Positions 2,419-33,215 of a stretch of DNA of 33,787 nt are shown piece after piece. A program made the position numbers and the translations under genes. Within the stretch, counting starts at the first letter, position 1, and every line of letters starts with the position of its first letter. The notes under the pieces are model-generated. The model saw only the letters and a program-made list of their open reading frames with translations. It did not search any database and had not been told where the DNA came from. Source of the stretch: a virus (taxonomy: Duplodnaviria > Heunggongvirae > Uroviricota > Caudoviricetes); IMG/VR virus record IMGVR_UViG_2724679074_000004, positions 1 to 33,787 of that record; one strand, given 5' to 3'.

Positions 2419-2826
2419 ATGCCATTCCACCCAACTGGTGAGGCATCAAGGATGTACAGCAAATACGACGAGGCGAAGTTTCACTTGAGACTTCCGCATG
2501 AACTCCACGCGAAAATTAAACAGCGCGCGAAGATGAATAACAGGTCACTGAACTCAGAGATAATTGCAGCGATTGAAGAATCATTGGCTAAACAAAGCTC
2601 TGCATCAGTTTACATTGACGATGCAGAGCGTATGCAGAACAACAATCTGATATGGTTAAGAAAATTGTCTTTGATACGCTCAAAGAGCTATATAAAAAAG
2701 ACAGCAGTTAACCATCAGTTACGGAGGATTTATGCAAAGAGATACGCTGAATATTGCGTTCTACATATTTGGTTTTTGCACGTTCCTGGTGTTTGCGAAG
2801 CTATTCTGACAACGCATCAGACTTAG
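2419..2826 (+). CDS. mnt: Mnt-like ribbon-helix-helix repressor (immI remnant); true start possibly the internal ATG at ~2452; C-terminal ~40 aa extension overlaps gp16 3' end
   Basis: Segment FHLRLPHELHAKIKQRAKMNNRSLNSEIIAAIEESL resembles the RHH N-terminus of P22 Mnt/Arc; divergent orientation between gene 16 and gene 9 homologs matches P22 mnt. Confidence 0.55.
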   Translation: MPFHPTGEASRMYSKYDEAKFHLRLPHELHAKIKQRAKMNNRSLNSEIIAAIEESLAKQSSASVYIDDAERMQNNNLIWLRKLSLIRSKSYIKKTAVNHQLRRIYAKRYAEYCVLHIWFLHVPGVCEAILTTHQT

Positions 2827-19518: not shown

Positions 19519-19757
19519 TTCCATCGGTGCGCTGCCGATTGCAGTACGCGCGGCGGTCAGCTACATGACTAGTATTTTCACTGTCGCCTATCTGCTAGCT
19601 CGCCATTGAGCTTCACCACAACGATAAGAGCACTGCGCGGCACCTTTCACCAATTCCGCGAGGTCTGCGGGTTCAATGCTCTTACCTGTTGTGCAAACAA
19701 AAAAAGCCACCATTGCAACTTAAGAGTCACTAACGGCAGCTTATCTTCTAATTATGG

Positions 19758-20279
19758 CTAAATGGATAATTGCATGTCAAGGCTTTTAACAGCAACATGC
19801 TTAACTTTCTCAACACGTTTACGCATTTTGAAAGCATTTTGCATTGGCTGGTACAAAACAAATAACGACGCTTTCAGGATGTCGTCAATTTCGTTTCTAC
19901 AGGTTGCCAGTGAAGGTTTTCTCCATCCCTCGCCACCACGTCCACACATCTTGCGTGGCTTTGCAGTCGCGTGATAGTAGGATGCAATTGCTCGCTTAGA
20001 TGAACCATGAGCGTAGTAGCTGAGGAGGATGCCAAAGGCTTTCTTGTCAATGTACATGACGGAATCGACGACCTGAGAAATCAACATTCCATCATCATCA
20101 TTGCACATTGGCCTTGTCATAACTCTTCCCGGCTCTACGCTCTCCATGAACTTCGCTATTACGCTGCTCATGCGCTTTTCCAGACGACCTGAATAAACCC
20201 ATGCGCCCCACAGTTCAAGCCAGCAATTCAGCCAATCGTGCTGTTCTTTGGTGAGGTTTAGTTCTCTTATGCTCATCAT
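19758..20279 (-). CDS. Late-gene antiterminator Q (phage 82 / Phage_antitermQ-type, gene 23 position)
   Basis: 173 aa ORF directly downstream of the nin genes and upstream of the late leader/lysis genes; resemblance to 82-type Q proteins is from memory. Confidence 0.55.
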   Translation of the reverse strand: MMSIRELNLTKEQHDWLNCWLELWGAWVYSGRLEKRMSSVIAKFMESVEPGRVMTRPMCNDDDGMLISQVVDSVMYIDKKAFGILLSYYAHGSSKRAIASYYHATAKPRKMCGRGGEGWRKPSLATCRNEIDDILKASLFVLYQPMQNAFKMRKRVEKVKHVAVKSLDMQLSI

Positions 20280-20820: not shown

Positions 20821-21107
20821 GACTTAATCTTCCCCTCCTTCAGCAGTATCGCCTGCGTCCTGATCACGCCTTCGAGGTGGTAAAGTCTGGCGTCTTTGTT
20901 GTCGAGATTATGGGTGCGTCGGTCGATTTCATCGTGACACGCGCTACAAGCCCATGCGCCGATCAGGTCGTCAGGCTTCATTCCCGTTCCGCAAATTCCA
21001 GCCATCCGGTAATGTGCCAGAACTGTAGTTTCAGGATTGCCATTGCATACGCCGTAAATACGTACCTGGCATTCTCTGCCGCGTGCTTCTTTGCGTAGGT
21101 TAGCCAT
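20817..21107 (-). CDS. YbcO-like (DUF1364) putative nuclease
   Basis: 96 aa; RGRECQVRI.GVCNGNPETTVLAH.R..G.CGTG.KP.DL....ACSACHDEIDRRTH matches remembered DLP12 YbcO. Confidence 0.7.
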   Translation of the reverse strand: MANLRKEARGRECQVRIYGVCNGNPETTVLAHYRMAGICGTGMKPDDLIGAWACSACHDEIDRRTHNLDNKDARLYHLEGVIRTQAILLKEGKIKS

Positions 21108-21829
21108 TAAGCAGCCTCCCCTGTTACTTTCAGCATTCCGTTATCGAGCAGCTTTCTGGTCAGCCACTGTTGACCGCGCCCGGTGATTTTTGTGGTGAAC
21201 GATATCTGTATTCCGTGATTTGTGTTGACCGCTGTTTCTTTCACTGTGAAATAGCCGCGCTCCATATATTCCTGCATTGGCACATTTCGCCGGGAACCTG
21301 AAGCAATAAGGATTTTGTGATCGCGCATCCATGCAAACAGTTTGTTTTGACCAATACCGACAACCTTTGCAAAGTTTCCAATCAAAATTCCGCTGGCCTC
21401 GCCAACGCGATCGGCAAACTCAACTTTAGGTGCGGCAATTGCGAGCTGGTTTTCCAGTTGCATTTTCTGCTCAGCAAGATCAGCAGCAAGGCGCAACGCT
21501 TCCGGTAGCGTTTTGGGGATATTAACCGCAGCTTCTTCAAGCTCTCGCCAGCGGTCAACAAGGCGAGCGGTGAATTCCGGCGACAACTGGGCTACAACGA
21601 CAATACTGTCTCGCTTTCCTTGTTCGCCCTCGAAGACGTAATGCTCGTACTGAACATTGAACCCTAAGTTATTGATTCTTTCGGAAACCTCAATTTGAGG
21701 AAGCCGGATAACACCATTTTTAGCCAGCGTTTCGATGGTACGTTTCACATTGTCATGACGCTTACCCACCAACTCAGCGATTTCAATGCTTGTCATTTTG
21801 ATGGCATTGCCATTCATTAACTCACTCAT
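21107..21829 (-). CDS. Rha-family phage regulatory protein / antirepressor-like (N-terminal Rha domain, C-terminal antirepressor-type domain)
   Basis: 240 aa; family assignment from overall resemblance to Rha/KilAC antirepressors recalled from memory; located in nin region. Confidence 0.55.
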   Translation of the reverse strand: MSELMNGNAIKMTSIEIAELVGKRHDNVKRTIETLAKNGVIRLPQIEVSERINNLGFNVQYEHYVFEGEQGKRDSIVVVAQLSPEFTARLVDRWRELEEAAVNIPKTLPEALRLAADLAEQKMQLENQLAIAAPKVEFADRVGEASGILIGNFAKVVGIGQNKLFAWMRDHKILIASGSRRNVPMQEYMERGYFTVKETAVNTNHGIQISFTTKITGRGQQWLTRKLLDNGMLKVTGEAA

Positions 21830-21995
21830 CGTCTTCTTCCTCGTACATTGAGCTATTCGGATCGCTCATCAGTTCTGCGCAGCACGCTTCACATACATGA
21901 ACTTCCAGCACATGCAGCTTCTGACCGCAGTTAGCGCACGTTAAAGCCCGCTCGACGCTTTCTTGTTCGTAACTTCGATTTGGGTCAATCACCTT
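21822..21995 (-). CDS. Possible small zinc-ribbon protein (57 codons, GTG start), translationally coupled to the Rha-like gene
   Basis: Frame contains C-x2-C ... C-x2-CC (CANCGQ..CEACC); stop overlaps downstream ATG (ATGAGTGA); GAGGAA 7 nt upstream of GTG. Confidence 0.35.
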
Positions 21996-22171
21996 GTATT
22001 CCTCGCACGTTCTCTAAGCCACCGGATATCCCACAGGTGAGCCGTGTAGTTGAAGGTTTTTACGTCAGATTCTTTTGGGATTGGCTTGCGTTTATTTCTG
22101 GAGCGTTTGGTTGGAAGGTATTTGCAGTTTTCGCAGATGATGTCGGTGATGCTTCGTCGCTGTCGTCTCAT
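21989..22171 (-). CDS. ninE: NinE
   Basis: [52 protein letters not shown] matches lambda NinE; ATG overlaps NinB stop (ATGA). Confidence 0.85.
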
Positions 22172-22608
22172 GCCGCCCTGTCTCCCCATCTCGCTTTCCA
22201 CTCCAGAGCCAGTCGCGCTTCGTCTGACCACTTAACGCCACGCTCTGTACCGAATGCCTGTATAAGCTCTAATAGCTCCGCAAATTCGCTTACACGCATC
22301 CTGCTGGTTGACTGGCCTATTACCACAAAGCCATTCCCGGCAAGGTTAGGAACAACGTCCTGCTGCTTTAATGCAGCTGTAAAAACGCACTTCCAGCTTT
22401 CTGCATCCAGCCAGCGACCATGCCATTCAACCTGACGAGAGACGTCACCAAGGCAAGCCCAAAGCTTTCGATTCTGGTCTAAGCTGCGGTTGCGTTCCTG
22501 AATGGTTACTACGATTGGTTTGGTTGGGTCTGGAAGGATTTGCTGTACTGCGTGAATAGCATTTTGCTGAAGTGCTGGAGATCGAATTTCAAAGGTCAGT
22601 TTTTTCAT
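22168..22608 (-). CDS. ninB: NinB (Orf-family recombination mediator)
   Basis: 146 aa from [67 protein letters not shown].. near-identical to lambda NinB. Confidence 0.9.
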
Positions 22609-22685
22609 GACTTCCCTCTCCCCCAAATAAAAAGACCTGCGATTACCAGCAGGCCTGTTATTAGCTCAGTGATGTAGATGGTCAT
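22605..22685 (-). CDS. Possible 26-aa hydrophobic peptide gene bridging ren and ninB
   Basis: ATG overlaps ren stop (ATGA) and its TGA overlaps ninB ATG (ATGA): [26 protein letters not shown]; too short for the ORF track. Confidence 0.3.
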   Translation of the reverse strand: MTIYITELITGLLVIAGLFIWGRGKS

Positions 22686-25406: not shown

Positions 25407-25469
25407 ATAACTCAAGTTATAAAAAATAGCAATAACCTTTGTTATTTTACTTTGGATAACCGTAGTTAT
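25407..25469. promoter_or_regulatory. OR operator region: three 14-bp palindromes with ATAAC/GTTAT half-sites, centre spacing 24-25 bp, between cro and cI (PR/PRM region)
   Basis: ATAACTCAAGTTAT (25407-25420), ATAACCTTTGTTAT (25432-25445), ATAACCGTAGTTAT (25456-25469) read directly. Confidence 0.6.
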
Positions 25470-25481
25470 AGATTTGTGGGT

Positions 25482-26189
25482 ATGAAAACATTCGCAGAAA
25501 GACTAAATGCAGCCATGAGCTCAGCAGGGGTATCACAATCACAGCTTGCTGACATGGTTGGAATATCTCAGCCAGCCATACAGAAGATGTCGTCCGGTAA
25601 AACAAACGGATCTCGCAAGATGGTTGAATTAGCCAATGCTTTAAAAGTGCGCCCTGAATGGCTTAGTTCTGGTATTGGTGAAATGAGGGATGGTGCACAT
25701 GAAGAACCATCCAATTTCCGTGAGTCATCTTTAAAAGCTGTGGTATGGGAAGACATTAAAAGAAACGATGACGAGTTTGTTGCGTTGCCTCTTCTTAACG
25801 TTTCGCTTTCAGCTGGAAGCGGTAGCTGCGAGCTAGAGGAATCATCGGAGTTCTCTTTGGTTTTCAGAAAGCACTATCTGAAAAAGATGGGAGTATCTGA
25901 AAGATCAGCCAAGCTAGTTAGGGTTGTAGGGCAAAGCATGGAACCAACGCTTCACGATGGCGATGTTGTTGGTGTTAACACGCAAGATACCACCATCAGA
26001 GATGGTAAAACCTACGCTATTTGCCAGTCTGATTTGTTACGAGTAAAAACATTAATCGCCACCCCTACATCGGTGATAATCAGATCAATAAATCGCGAAG
26101 AGTACCCGGATGAAGTAATGGATAGAGATGAATTTCATGAAACCGTAAGGATTATTGGCAGAGTATTCTGGTCGTCTCATAGTTGGTAA
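25482..26189 (+). CDS. cI: CI-type prophage repressor (XRE HTH + S24 LexA-like autopeptidase domain)
   Basis: N-terminal HTH (SQSQLADMVGISQPAIQKMSSG), Ala-Gly cleavage motif (SLSAGSG), catalytic Ser in GQSMEPT and Lys in RVKTL; start taken at MKTFAERL (track uses an upstream TTG). Confidence 0.9.
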   Translation: MKTFAERLNAAMSSAGVSQSQLADMVGISQPAIQKMSSGKTNGSRKMVELANALKVRPEWLSSGIGEMRDGAHEEPSNFRESSLKAVVWEDIKRNDDEFVALPLLNVSLSAGSGSCELEESSEFSLVFRKHYLKKMGVSERSAKLVRVVGQSMEPTLHDGDVVGVNTQDTTIRDGKTYAICQSDLLRVKTLIATPTSVIIRSINREEYPDEVMDRDEFHETVRIIGRVFWSSHSW

Positions 26190-26959: not shown

Positions 26960-27232
26960 ATGACAGTAGTCATTACATATCTGGCTGACGATAACGCCAG
27001 AAATCGCCGCAGAGCACGCAGACAGGCTCAACGTGAGCAGGCAATGCAAGAACAGCGACTGGCGCGAAAAATTGCGCTAAAGCTCTCTAGTTGCGTCAGA
27101 GCAGACAAAGCAGCATCACTCGGAAGCCTTCGCTGCAAGAAGGCAGAAGAATGCAGTGGAAGTATTTGCCTGCCAAACGTAGCTCTTTACGCGGCAGGCT
27201 ACCGGAAATCAAAACAACTGACAGCCAGGTAA
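26960..27232 (+). CDS. N: N-type transcription antiterminator (P22 gene 24-like)
   Basis: Arginine-rich motif NARNRRRARRQAQREQ at N-terminus; C-terminus LPNVALYAAGYRKSKQLTAR matches remembered P22 gp24; preceded by nutL. Confidence 0.8.
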   Translation: MTVVITYLADDNARNRRRARRQAQREQAMQEQRLARKIALKLSSCVRADKAASLGSLRCKKAEECSGSICLPNVALYAAGYRKSKQLTAR

Positions 27233-27515: not shown

Positions 27516-27616
27516 GTGATATATGGAAGAACAAGCAAACAAGATTCTCGTAGAGCTACCGCAAGCCACGCAGTGAAATGGGTGTTACTTGTGTTGGTCG
27601 CCAGAAAATGAAATTA

Positions 27617-27638
27617 GGCAGCAAACCACTTATTTGAG
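27617..27638 (+). repeat. 22-bp direct repeat copy 2 (GGCAGCAAACCACTTATTTGAG), immediately upstream of the RBS/start of the 207-aa gene
   Basis: Identical to 27494-27515. Confidence 0.75.
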
Positions 27639-27648
27639 AGGAATTAAT

Positions 27649-28272
27649 ATGTCATCAATCCGCTTAACTACGAGAATGAAAGAGGAAATCGCTCGTAACG
27701 CTTTAATTAAGTCTGGGGTTTTCACTGAACTTGAAGAAGTAACAAAGTTAAAGAACCAGCTTGCACTTGACGCCAGAGTTATTGCGTTTGGCGGTAAAAA
27801 GAAAACTGAGGAAGTGGATCGGTTATCATCCAAGTTAGCAGCTATAAGTGAAGAACTTGAGAAGATGGGATGTTCATTTTACTCATGCGATGTTCGTTCT
27901 ACTTCGATTTATCTGACTGTATCTGGAAGAAGGGTTGGCTGGCATTCATATGGGAAAGACGGCAACGGCGAAGATATATTGCTCCCTACTCCGACAAAAG
28001 ATAAATGCATGTTTGACGCAGAGCACGAAATAACAAAAAGGTTTGATGAAATCTGCTCATTACAACAAAAACTTGAAGCAAAGAAAAAGGATATCGAATC
28101 AAATGTATGGGCTGCTTTAAACTCAGTCACAACAGTTAAGCGACTTATTGAGGTTTGGCCTGAAAGCAAAGAGTTGCTACCAAAAGAAGCAGATAAAGCA
28201 AGTACAGCACTTCCTGCTTTACGGGTAGAAGATTTGAATAAGATGATTGGACTTCCTTCCGAGGCCGCATAG
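27649..28272 (+). CDS. Hypothetical protein (207 aa), unknown function, early-left accessory region
   Basis: Start at MSSIRLTTRMKEEIARN with GAGGAA RBS; soluble, coiled-coil-rich; no family recognized. Confidence 0.55.
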   Translation: MSSIRLTTRMKEEIARNALIKSGVFTELEEVTKLKNQLALDARVIAFGGKKKTEEVDRLSSKLAAISEELEKMGCSFYSCDVRSTSIYLTVSGRRVGWHSYGKDGNGEDILLPTPTKDKCMFDAEHEITKRFDEICSLQQKLEAKKKDIESNVWAALNSVTTVKRLIEVWPESKELLPKEADKASTALPALRVEDLNKMIGLPSEAA

Positions 28273-31901: not shown

Positions 31902-32590
31902 GCGAAATTAATTACCAGGCACTGCGTGAGGCGGCAGTGAAAGCAACGTGGGGAGACTGGGACTCATATAAACCACACCGTGGCGCACGTGGTTATGAGG
32001 TCCGACTAAGTAGTCAGGCCATTGCGCAACACGTTCTGAAAAACAACGCTGAATTTATTGCTGCCTTTAATCCAAAGGTTGCTTTGGCACTACTGGATGA
32101 ACGGGAAAGAAACCAGCAATACATCAAATCACGCGACCAGGAGAACGAGGATATTGCGCTTACGGTTGGGAGGCTGCGCGTTGAGCTGGAAGGCAAAGAC
32201 AGCAAAATAGCCAATCTTACCGCCGAACGCGATGCTCTTCGTGAAGGTGAGATGGGCGACGCTAGGCATAGCAACACACGGGCCGCAGCTGATATCTACT
32301 TCCAACTGGTCGAGGAGTGCGAAATTCCTGCTGGCGGATCTCTGGTCGAGTACGTTGACGATATGCGCGAGAAGCTGGAAGCCGCAGAGAAGCGCATTGC
32401 AGAGTTAGAAAGTGGTTCTCAGGCACAAAAGTTAGTTGAAGCAATCATTGTTGCGATAGAAAACGAACAGGAAAGGCTTTTTGATGAAGATTACCTAATG
32501 GATTCGAAAGAATGCATTGACGTAATTCGTGAAGAAGTAAAGCGATGGAATGATTCCCGTGCCGCTGGCATTCGCATCAAAGGAGAGTGA
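31898..32590 (+). CDS. Ea22-like coiled-coil early protein (GTG start)
   Basis: AAGGAGG 7 nt upstream of GTG; N-terminus [20 protein letters not shown] and coiled-coil body resemble ead/Ea22-like family (from memory). Confidence 0.5.
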
Positions 32591-32591
32591 T

Positions 32592-33215
32592 ATGAGCGCT
32601 ATAACCAAAGAACGTATCAAATTATTCATTAAAAATCCGCTTGATAACGGACTTACTCGTGGCGAACAAATGGAAGTGGCACGAATTGCACTGGCATCGC
32701 TGGAACGCGAACAGATTCGCCACGAGCATGCCAAATGGTCTGACTCCACATTTGGCTGCGTTGGCCCCATTGGTCCACTGAAACACCTCTCAAAAGAGGC
32801 TCTGGAAGCCGCAGCCGAACCTGACGATCTCAGCGAGTGGGCTGATATGCAGTTCCTGTTGTGGGATGCACAGCGCCGTGCCGGTATCAGTGATGCTGAA
32901 ATTACCGCTGCTATGGAAGATAAATTGAAGATCAACATGGAGCGTCAGTGGCCTGAACCAAAAGATGGTGAGCCTCGTTTGCACATTAAAGAACCCGGCA
33001 ACTCTCCGGCAACTCCGGATGGTTGGATAAGCTGTAGTGAGCTAATGCCAGATGATGGTCAGCACGTAATTATTTTATGTGATGGCGCATTCGTTCTTTA
33101 TGCGCAATATCGAGACGGAGAGTTTTTCGATATTGTCCGCAATGGTGATGAATTTTTCGAAACACAGAGTCGCAATGTAACCGACTGGATGCAACTACCA
33201 GAACCTCCTCTTTGA
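32592..33215 (+). CDS. Hypothetical protein with N-terminal DUF550-like (dATP/dGTP pyrophosphohydrolase-type) and C-terminal DUF551-like domains
   Basis: 207 aa from MSAITKERIKL (GGAGAG RBS); domain assignment from remembered motifs (..WISCSELMPDDGQHVIIL..DWMQLPEPP). Confidence 0.5.
   Translation: MSAITKERIKLFIKNPLDNGLTRGEQMEVARIALASLEREQIRHEHAKWSDSTFGCVGPIGPLKHLSKEALEAAAEPDDLSEWADMQFLLWDAQRRAGISDAEITAAMEDKLKINMERQWPEPKDGEPRLHIKEPGNSPATPDGWISCSELMPDDGQHVIILCDGAFVLYAQYRDGEFFDIVRNGDEFFETQSRNVTDWMQLPEPPL

Follow-up and report, generated by a model that had tools for sequence, protein, structure and literature searches.

A stretch of viral DNA, the record IMGVR_UViG_2724679074_000004 (33,787 nucleotides, hereafter the window), carries in its nin region a gene for a Rha-type protein whose start codon overlaps the stop codon of a small cysteine-rich open reading frame (ORF). 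Sequence comparison identifies the larger ORF as roi, a known gene in a known place, and the small ORF as ninF, which is likewise known. The genes of this finding are all on the minus strand. Within roi lie a 13-base-pair (bp) palindrome and a predicted site for integration host factor (IHF), and the palindrome is what this report adds. The relevant features are as follows.

21107-21829, minus strand: roi, 240 amino acids, ATG start; a Rha-type winged-helix N-terminal domain, a long linker helix and a KilAC/ANT C-terminal domain
21533-21796, minus strand: Rha-type winged helix-turn-helix, codons 12-99 (Pfam and AlphaFold2)
21146-21454, minus strand: KilAC/ANT domain, codons 126-228 (Pfam)
21635-21766, minus strand: hypervariable cassette, codons 22-65, recognition helix and wing; at least nine alleles among close relatives
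21688-21700: perfect 13-bp palindrome CCTCAA-A-TTGAGG, roi nucleotides 130-142, codons 44-48; proposed Roi operator
21665-21677, minus strand: IHF core consensus AATCAATAACTTA, roi nucleotides 153-165, codons I-N-N-L, 10 bp downstream of the palindrome
21822-21992, minus strand: ninF, 56 amino acids plus stop (57 codons), GTG start, five cysteines as CxxC...CxxCC
21822-21829, minus strand: overlap of the roi start with the ninF stop, 8 nucleotides, ATGAGTGA

Both domains that an initial annotation of this DNA had read in the larger protein were recovered with Pfam, where Phage_pRha (PF09669) matches Roi residues 12-99 (36.8 bits, cutoff 29.9) and ANT/KilAC (PF03374) matches residues 126-228 (114.6 bits, cutoff 25.3). 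The protein is assigned to PHROG 63. An AlphaFold2 model of Roi, built with a 97-sequence alignment, is confident for the N-terminal domain (predicted local distance difference test, pLDDT, of 83-93 over residues 11-100). This domain is modelled as a winged helix, with a strand at residues 11-13, a helix at 14-21, the recognition helix at 25-37, wing strands at 45-52 and 58-67, and two further helices over 68-101. It is followed by a long helix (residues 108-144) that probably dimerizes, and then by the KilAC domain, which is modelled poorly and with low confidence. The best matches of the model in a Foldseek search of the PDB are MarR/TFIIE/PadR winged helices, which are non-significant (E at least 0.047). 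Sequence and profile searches of the PDB returned no solved relative of Roi, and NCBIfam has no model for Roi or NinF.

Roi is 99% identical to the product of CUS-3 roi and 87% identical, over 240 amino acids, to HK022 Roi. Phages HK140, HK97, HK022, mEpX1/2 and CUS-3 share the gene order and nearly the same DNA, and in these phages the gene is annotated as roi. A scan of genome contigs for the locus returned 10 loci, and the protein database holds more than 7,000 Roi homologues. The gene had been thought to be inserted among the nin genes, but it occupies the same slot in HK022, HK97 and CUS-3, and ninF and roi are found at a coverage of at least 80% in 958 of 5,426 complete E. coli genomes. 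Thus, the position after ninF, before ybcO or ninG and upstream of Q is a standard slot and not an unusual insertion. The product of roi in Shiga toxin (Stx) phages and HK022 has been described as binding DNA and influencing lytic growth (PMC3430580, PMC4587872; both cite Clerget and Boccard 1996 for roi), and Rha proteins prevent phages from growing in hosts defective in IHF (PMC4936722).

Covariation at the palindrome and conservation of the IHF core

The C-terminal half of Roi is nearly invariant among close relatives, and the palindrome lies within the hypervariable cassette. Several perfect palindromes with arms of 5-6 bases occur in roi and, because such palindromes recur, one found in a single sequence is no evidence of a functional element; only covariation across alleles is. 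Eight of nine E. coli alleles carry a palindrome of at least five of six pairs on the same centre nucleotide, formed by other sequences (CCTGCA, CCCCCA, CCGCCA, ACTCCG). The comparison was extended to a diverse IMG/VR set of 56 distinct loci with 34-75% identity to an Acinetobacter homologue. At least five of six pairs are present at the exact offset of the palindrome in 55% of these loci, compared with 0-14% at 24 neighbouring offsets.

When the 56 distinct sequences are aligned, 90.8% of palindrome cells are paired versus 69.7% in shuffles, a value reached by none of 500 shuffles, and slid controls give 32-45%. All six pairs of the palindrome have changed on both sides, and compensatory cells number 55 against 15.3 expected. 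A reading of the palindrome as an RNA hairpin was rejected, as the loop would be a single nucleotide and G.U-type cells are rare (7 of 305 paired palindrome cells); for the same reasons, the element is taken to be a dyad of the DNA. The third base of Pro44, a synonymous site, changes together with the second base of codon 47, a covariation for which constraint on the protein cannot account. A synonymous change that breaks the dyad, CAA to CAG at Gln45, occurs naturally in 2 of 79 loci.

The dyad sequence changes with the recognition helix, not with the wing. In all 36 cases of C:G at dyad positions +/-2, residue 34 is Arg, and the 20 A:T cases carry another residue there (Thr34 in the window) after correction of a one-residue register shift in one Symbiopectobacterium row, which scores as Arg in the raw table if left uncorrected. 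Similarly, RT, QS and RS at residues 30-31 go with T:A, C:G and G:C, respectively, at dyad position 3. No second good copy of the palindrome was found in the window, CUS-3 or HK022, and matches with two mismatches occur at chance level, one of them (21418-21430) in the constant part of roi. These patterns suggest that the palindrome at 21688-21700 is probably the operator of Roi itself.

The only exact match to WATCAANNNNTTR in the 33.8-kb window is the predicted IHF core in roi. This core is kept in three of the four alleles first compared, and in the HK022 allele it falls on the same codons. Among 14 sequences compared later, all nine that have an IN-x-LG wing keep the core. In these alleles ATC AAT xxx TTA is invariant at synonymous sites, while even non-synonymous differences occur at the four N positions and the Gly codon that comes next is free at its third base. 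Such invariance beside free variation argues for selection on the DNA at the IHF core. The same 13-mer, AATCAATAACTTA, is present in the ..EKINNLG.. codons of P22 rha (locus L190, 4076-4681).

Inside the invariant part of roi (21391-21407, minus strand) there is also a hairpin resembling a terminator, with a T-rich run behind it (CGTTGGCGAGGCCAGCG GAATTTTGAT); matches of this kind arise in this region at about the chance rate.

The nin operon and the mnt gene

The genes are ordered ninB-ninE-ninF-roi-ybcO-rusA-ninH-Q with zero intergenic bases, and each junction from ninB to Q overlaps by 1-8 nucleotides. Pfam assigns the flanking ORFs to NinB, NinE, NinF, YbcO/DUF1364, RusA, NinH and the Q antiterminator, which bears out the initial placement of roi in the nin region. 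The overlap between the roi ATG and the stop of the 57-codon ORF was also found as first described: ATGAGTGA represents minus-strand bases 21829-21822, with the roi ATG followed two nucleotides later by the ninF TGA. The small ORF, first read as a zinc ribbon, matches NinF (PF05810; 50.5 bits, cutoff 27.5), has the nin-region position after ninE, and encodes a product assigned to PHROG 672.

This ORF is conserved, as ninF lies directly upstream of roi with the same 8-nucleotide overlap in 79 of 80 IMG/VR loci that have the roi allele of the window. The overlap reads ATGAATGA in 67 loci with this allele and ATGAGTGA in 12, and roi is followed through a TAATG overlap by ybcO (71 loci) or ninG (8 loci). 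Because the ninF and ninG genes of P22 overlap in just this way (ATGGCTAA, 8 nucleotides), and because roi of Stx phages retains ATGAATGA behind a different upstream sequence, the overlap is a property of the operon and not a sign of a ninF-roi partnership. It is ordinary start/stop coupling of the nin operon. In the roi allele P0086, a separate 142-amino-acid ORF with a Rha domain (locus L095, 176-604) replaces ninF and overlaps roi by 4 nucleotides.

Further features of the window bear on the transcription of roi and on the immunity genes.

22633-22656, minus strand: terminator-like hairpin with a T-run, upstream of ninB, in a position like that of lambda tR2 (consensus scan only)
25452-26189: cI, with an S24 peptidase domain
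2452-2711, plus strand: mnt, Arc/Mnt family, next to the tailspike gene (the immI position)

A consensus scan of the coding strand between Q and cro revealed no promoter-like site and, since intergenic DNA is absent, there is no place for a promoter or operator between ninB and Q. The tR2-like hairpin, if it acts as such, would put the nin genes including roi under N antitermination, and an N gene is present at 26960-27232. Along with the cI-type repressor gene, the window has cro, cII, O and a DnaC-like P gene. The remainder belongs to a P22-like (Lederbergvirus) E. coli phage whose late genes lie on the minus strand, and no tRNA genes were found in the window.

A near-consensus promoter (19751-19780, minus strand; TTGACA, 18 nucleotides, CATAAT; 11 of 12 positions) straddles the 3' end of Q, whose coding sequence ends at 19758, and is likely to be the late promoter PR'. 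The ninE ORF as called by the program (21989-22231, minus strand, GTG start) overlaps ninB by 64 nucleotides. Its Pfam match starts at residue 21 and HK022 ninE has 60 amino acids; translation probably begins instead at the ATG at 22171, 4 nucleotides of overlap being shared with the ninB stop. An ORF of the early-left operon (27589-28272, plus strand, 227 amino acids) gives a strong match of 238 bits to Nmad5 (nucleotide modification associated domain 5), for which DNA modification or anti-restriction is a possible function. Another ORF (32550-33215, plus strand) fuses a dATP/dGTP pyrophosphohydrolase domain to DUF551.

The initial annotation had also linked roi to an mnt gene at the other end of the genome. 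An Arc/Mnt-family gene does adjoin the tailspike gene there, but it is a frameshifted pseudogene. Compared with IME10 and Sf101, one G is deleted after position 2634 (cgtatGGcag to cgtatGcag), which leaves the ribbon-helix-helix part in frame and shifts the frame before the tetramerization helix, with loss of the Repressor_Mnt Pfam domain. The same allele is present in E. coli EC3, where RefSeq annotates it as frameshifted, and, given an identical match length, probably in 8GC; in most relatives the gene is intact. Neither arc nor ant separates mnt from the tailspike gene. The DNA upstream of mnt contains two dyad-like sequences, CATACC-GAAAT-GGTACG (2376-2392), where the similarity to IME10 and Sf101 begins, and TTCCACC-CAACT-GGTGAGG (2425-2443). 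Either could be the operator of this type of Mnt, facing the start of the tailspike gene at 2318.

Whole-genome searches with tblastn found no P22-type Ant anywhere in the window, from which arc, ant and sar are all absent. These searches show that the window has roi and an mnt-type gene but no ant, that HK022 has roi but no mnt, arc or ant, and that CUS-3 combines roi (99%) with two mnt genes and an ant of the P22 type (56% to P22 Ant). Stx-type phages have, immediately upstream of roi, a P22_AR_C-type antirepressor gene in place of ninF (locus L008, 27-626; locus L093, 1-526, with ORF6N in the latter), and a true ant and roi are thus neighbours. This pattern of co-occurrence indicates that roi is independent of immI and is no substitute for ant.

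Models for Roi and its intragenic site

We consider it probable that this locus is the ninF-roi segment of a Lederbergvirus in which Roi and IHF act on an intragenic site, and that it is not half of an immI region. Roi would be an HK022-type DNA-binding protein of the Rha family, with an N-terminal winged helix, a probable dimerization helix and a KilAC domain. Lacking its own promoter, roi would be one cistron of the gap-free stretch from ninB to Q, read from PR after N antitermination, and Roi would therefore be made only when the cI-type repressor is off or during infection. A Roi dimer may then bind the palindrome inside its own coding sequence, with IHF bending the DNA at the adjacent consensus. 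The Roi-IHF complex on 21665-21700 could exert feedback on transcription through roi and perhaps as far as Q. Such a complex, if it forms, would account for the harm that Roi does to lytic growth when IHF is missing. The recognition helix and the operator would travel together as a specificity cassette.

Roi was reportedly described in 1996 as binding a site in its own gene beside an IHF site, with IHF stabilizing the binding. The palindrome and the IHF core appear to fit this description and to extend it to the whole family. A full-text literature search, which did not cover the 1996 Roi and 1995 rha papers, returned nothing on the palindrome or its covariation, and the covarying intragenic operator is, as far as we have found, a modest new detail. 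A more general proposal, for and against which we see equal weight, is that members of the Roi/Rha-KilAC family, from enterobacterial to Acinetobacter-like phages, carry a cognate 13-bp operator in their own gene, six codons past the recognition helix, which co-evolves with this helix by a readable code (Arg34 with C:G, non-Arg with A:T; RT, QS and RS at residues 30-31 with T:A, C:G and G:C). The result would be a portable self-targeting cassette, coupled to IHF in alleles with the INNLG wing, that gates nin transcription towards Q.

Several observations weigh against the model of Roi and IHF acting together. A distance of only about 20-60 nucleotides separates the dyad from the helix codons, and physical linkage alone could give part of the association. 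In Stx2-type QLPSMQKVENKQ and similar alleles the dyad is degenerate and the IHF core is missing. Alleles with other wing types retain the dyad without the core, and in P22 rha the core stands with no convincing dyad at the corresponding place; the former alleles demonstrate that the two elements are separable. The KilAC domain has no established role and a model of low confidence. Finally, we infer both Roi binding and its consequence from sequence, and an effect on the expression of Q downstream is pure inference.

An alternative that we regard as unlikely is that Roi is a true antirepressor whose KilAC domain inactivates a CI/C2-type repressor, either that of its own phage (feed-forward after induction) or a heteroimmune one, with DNA binding being secondary. 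P1 Ant1 and Ant2 carry a KilAC domain and inactivate the C1 repressor. The C-terminal domain of Roi matches the ANT family of Pfam and the 'anti-repressor Ant' family of PHROG, and RefSeq calls homologues 'phage antirepressor KilAC domain-containing protein', but this support consists of names, not tests. The antirepressor label initially given to Roi is likewise only the name of a Pfam domain, and Roi shares no family with P22 Ant. KilAC is shuffled among DNA-binding N-terminal domains such as BRO-N, to which it is fused in Acinetobacter, and many records have Roi homologues alongside a separate P22-type ant. Moreover, the repressor of the window, with its S24 self-cleavage domain, does not require an antirepressor, and roi lies deep in the PR operon, so its product could not start the induction of its own prophage. 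Among close homologues only HK022 Roi (87%) has been characterized, and both its annotation and PMC4587872 call it a DNA-binding protein.

The palindrome and the IHF site might instead be a cis element with another use, such as the site of another protein, a recombination boundary that gives the mosaic its form, or a replication or packaging element. The dyad is located exactly at the junction of the helix module with freely exchanging wing modules, IHF sites beside initiator sites are typical of origins, and lambda O/ori illustrates that a site within a gene can serve replication. However, the dyad tracks the recognition helix of its own protein (residues 34 and 30-31), which points to Roi as the partner. 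It is also a single site without iterons or an AT-rich unwinding region, and the HK022 and CUS-3 genomes hold no second copy. We think a use of this kind improbable. Hardly credible is the initial suggestion that an immI-like anti-immunity circuit has been split and relocated, with roi and the distant mnt as its parts and Mnt repressing roi. It drew on the presence of the Arc/Mnt-family gene beside the tailspike gene and on the 'antirepressor' domain name in Roi, and is contradicted on every testable point (homology, co-occurrence, operator, promoter and mnt integrity). Roi and P22 Ant give no meaningful alignment and are not homologous, the latter consisting of P22_AR_N and P22_AR_C, which are other Pfam families. 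The roi gene accompanies a full set of ant and mnt in CUS-3 and none in HK022. The expected Mnt-type operator was searched for and not found near roi, and neither P22 Omnt nor either of the mnt-upstream dyads has a second copy elsewhere in the window. Upstream of ninF and roi there is neither intergenic space nor a promoter-like site, and the frameshifted mnt lacks the Repressor_Mnt domain.

The pairing of roi with ninF that was first flagged matters little, as both genes are annotated in many phage genomes and the link to mnt fails. The correction gained is that 'antirepressor' on roi is a domain label and not a shown function, and that mnt in this phage is a pseudogene. For the model of Roi and IHF acting together, the covarying palindrome and the IHF core offer a concrete and testable account of how Roi and Rha make phage growth dependent on IHF. 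They may further provide a small, naturally occurring collection of matched helix and operator pairs for a winged-helix family that is without a solved structure. If the complex does modulate read-through to Q, this would bear on the timing of late genes and Shiga toxin in Stx phages that carry roi.

Comparison with known systems

Lambda O binds DNA at a target within the sequence that encodes it, such that specificity and site are inherited as one block. The likeness of roi to O/ori is an analogy only; there is no homology and no evidence of origin function, and the Roi site is a single dyad versus four iterons. Residues 104-233 of Roi are 67.7% identical to an ORF in the P1 lytic-replicon record X15638, which we take to be kilA. 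The P1 proteins with KilAC have KilA-N or Bro-N as N-terminal domains, unlike Roi, and KilA and Ant1 also differ from it in genomic setting and regulation. The P22 immI region (mnt - Pant/Omnt/Oarc - arc - ant - sar) resembles the window in having a Mnt-family gene in the immI position by the tailspike gene. It differs in that Ant is unrelated to Roi; the window is without arc, ant and sar, its mnt is frameshifted, and roi is unlinked to a Mnt operator.

The Rha proteins of phi80 and P22 (orf201; PF09669) share the family of the N-terminal domain with Roi, and P22 rha shares the identical IHF core. A published phenotype, harm to phage growth in IHF-defective hosts (PMC4936722), is also shared. 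In contrast to roi, P22 rha belongs to the late operon and lacks KilAC as well as a convincing dyad. The closest counterpart is HK022 Roi, as also found in HK97, CUS-3 and Stx phages, which has the same length, Rha plus KilAC architecture and slot after ninF and before ybcO or ninG. Besides their 87% and 99% identity, the HK022 and CUS-3 genes share the 8-nucleotide overlap and the codons that hold the IHF core. HK022 Roi differs in the recognition helix and wing (residues 22-65), and with them in the palindrome, which is CCTCAAaTTGAGG in the window and CCTGCAtTGCAGC in HK022.

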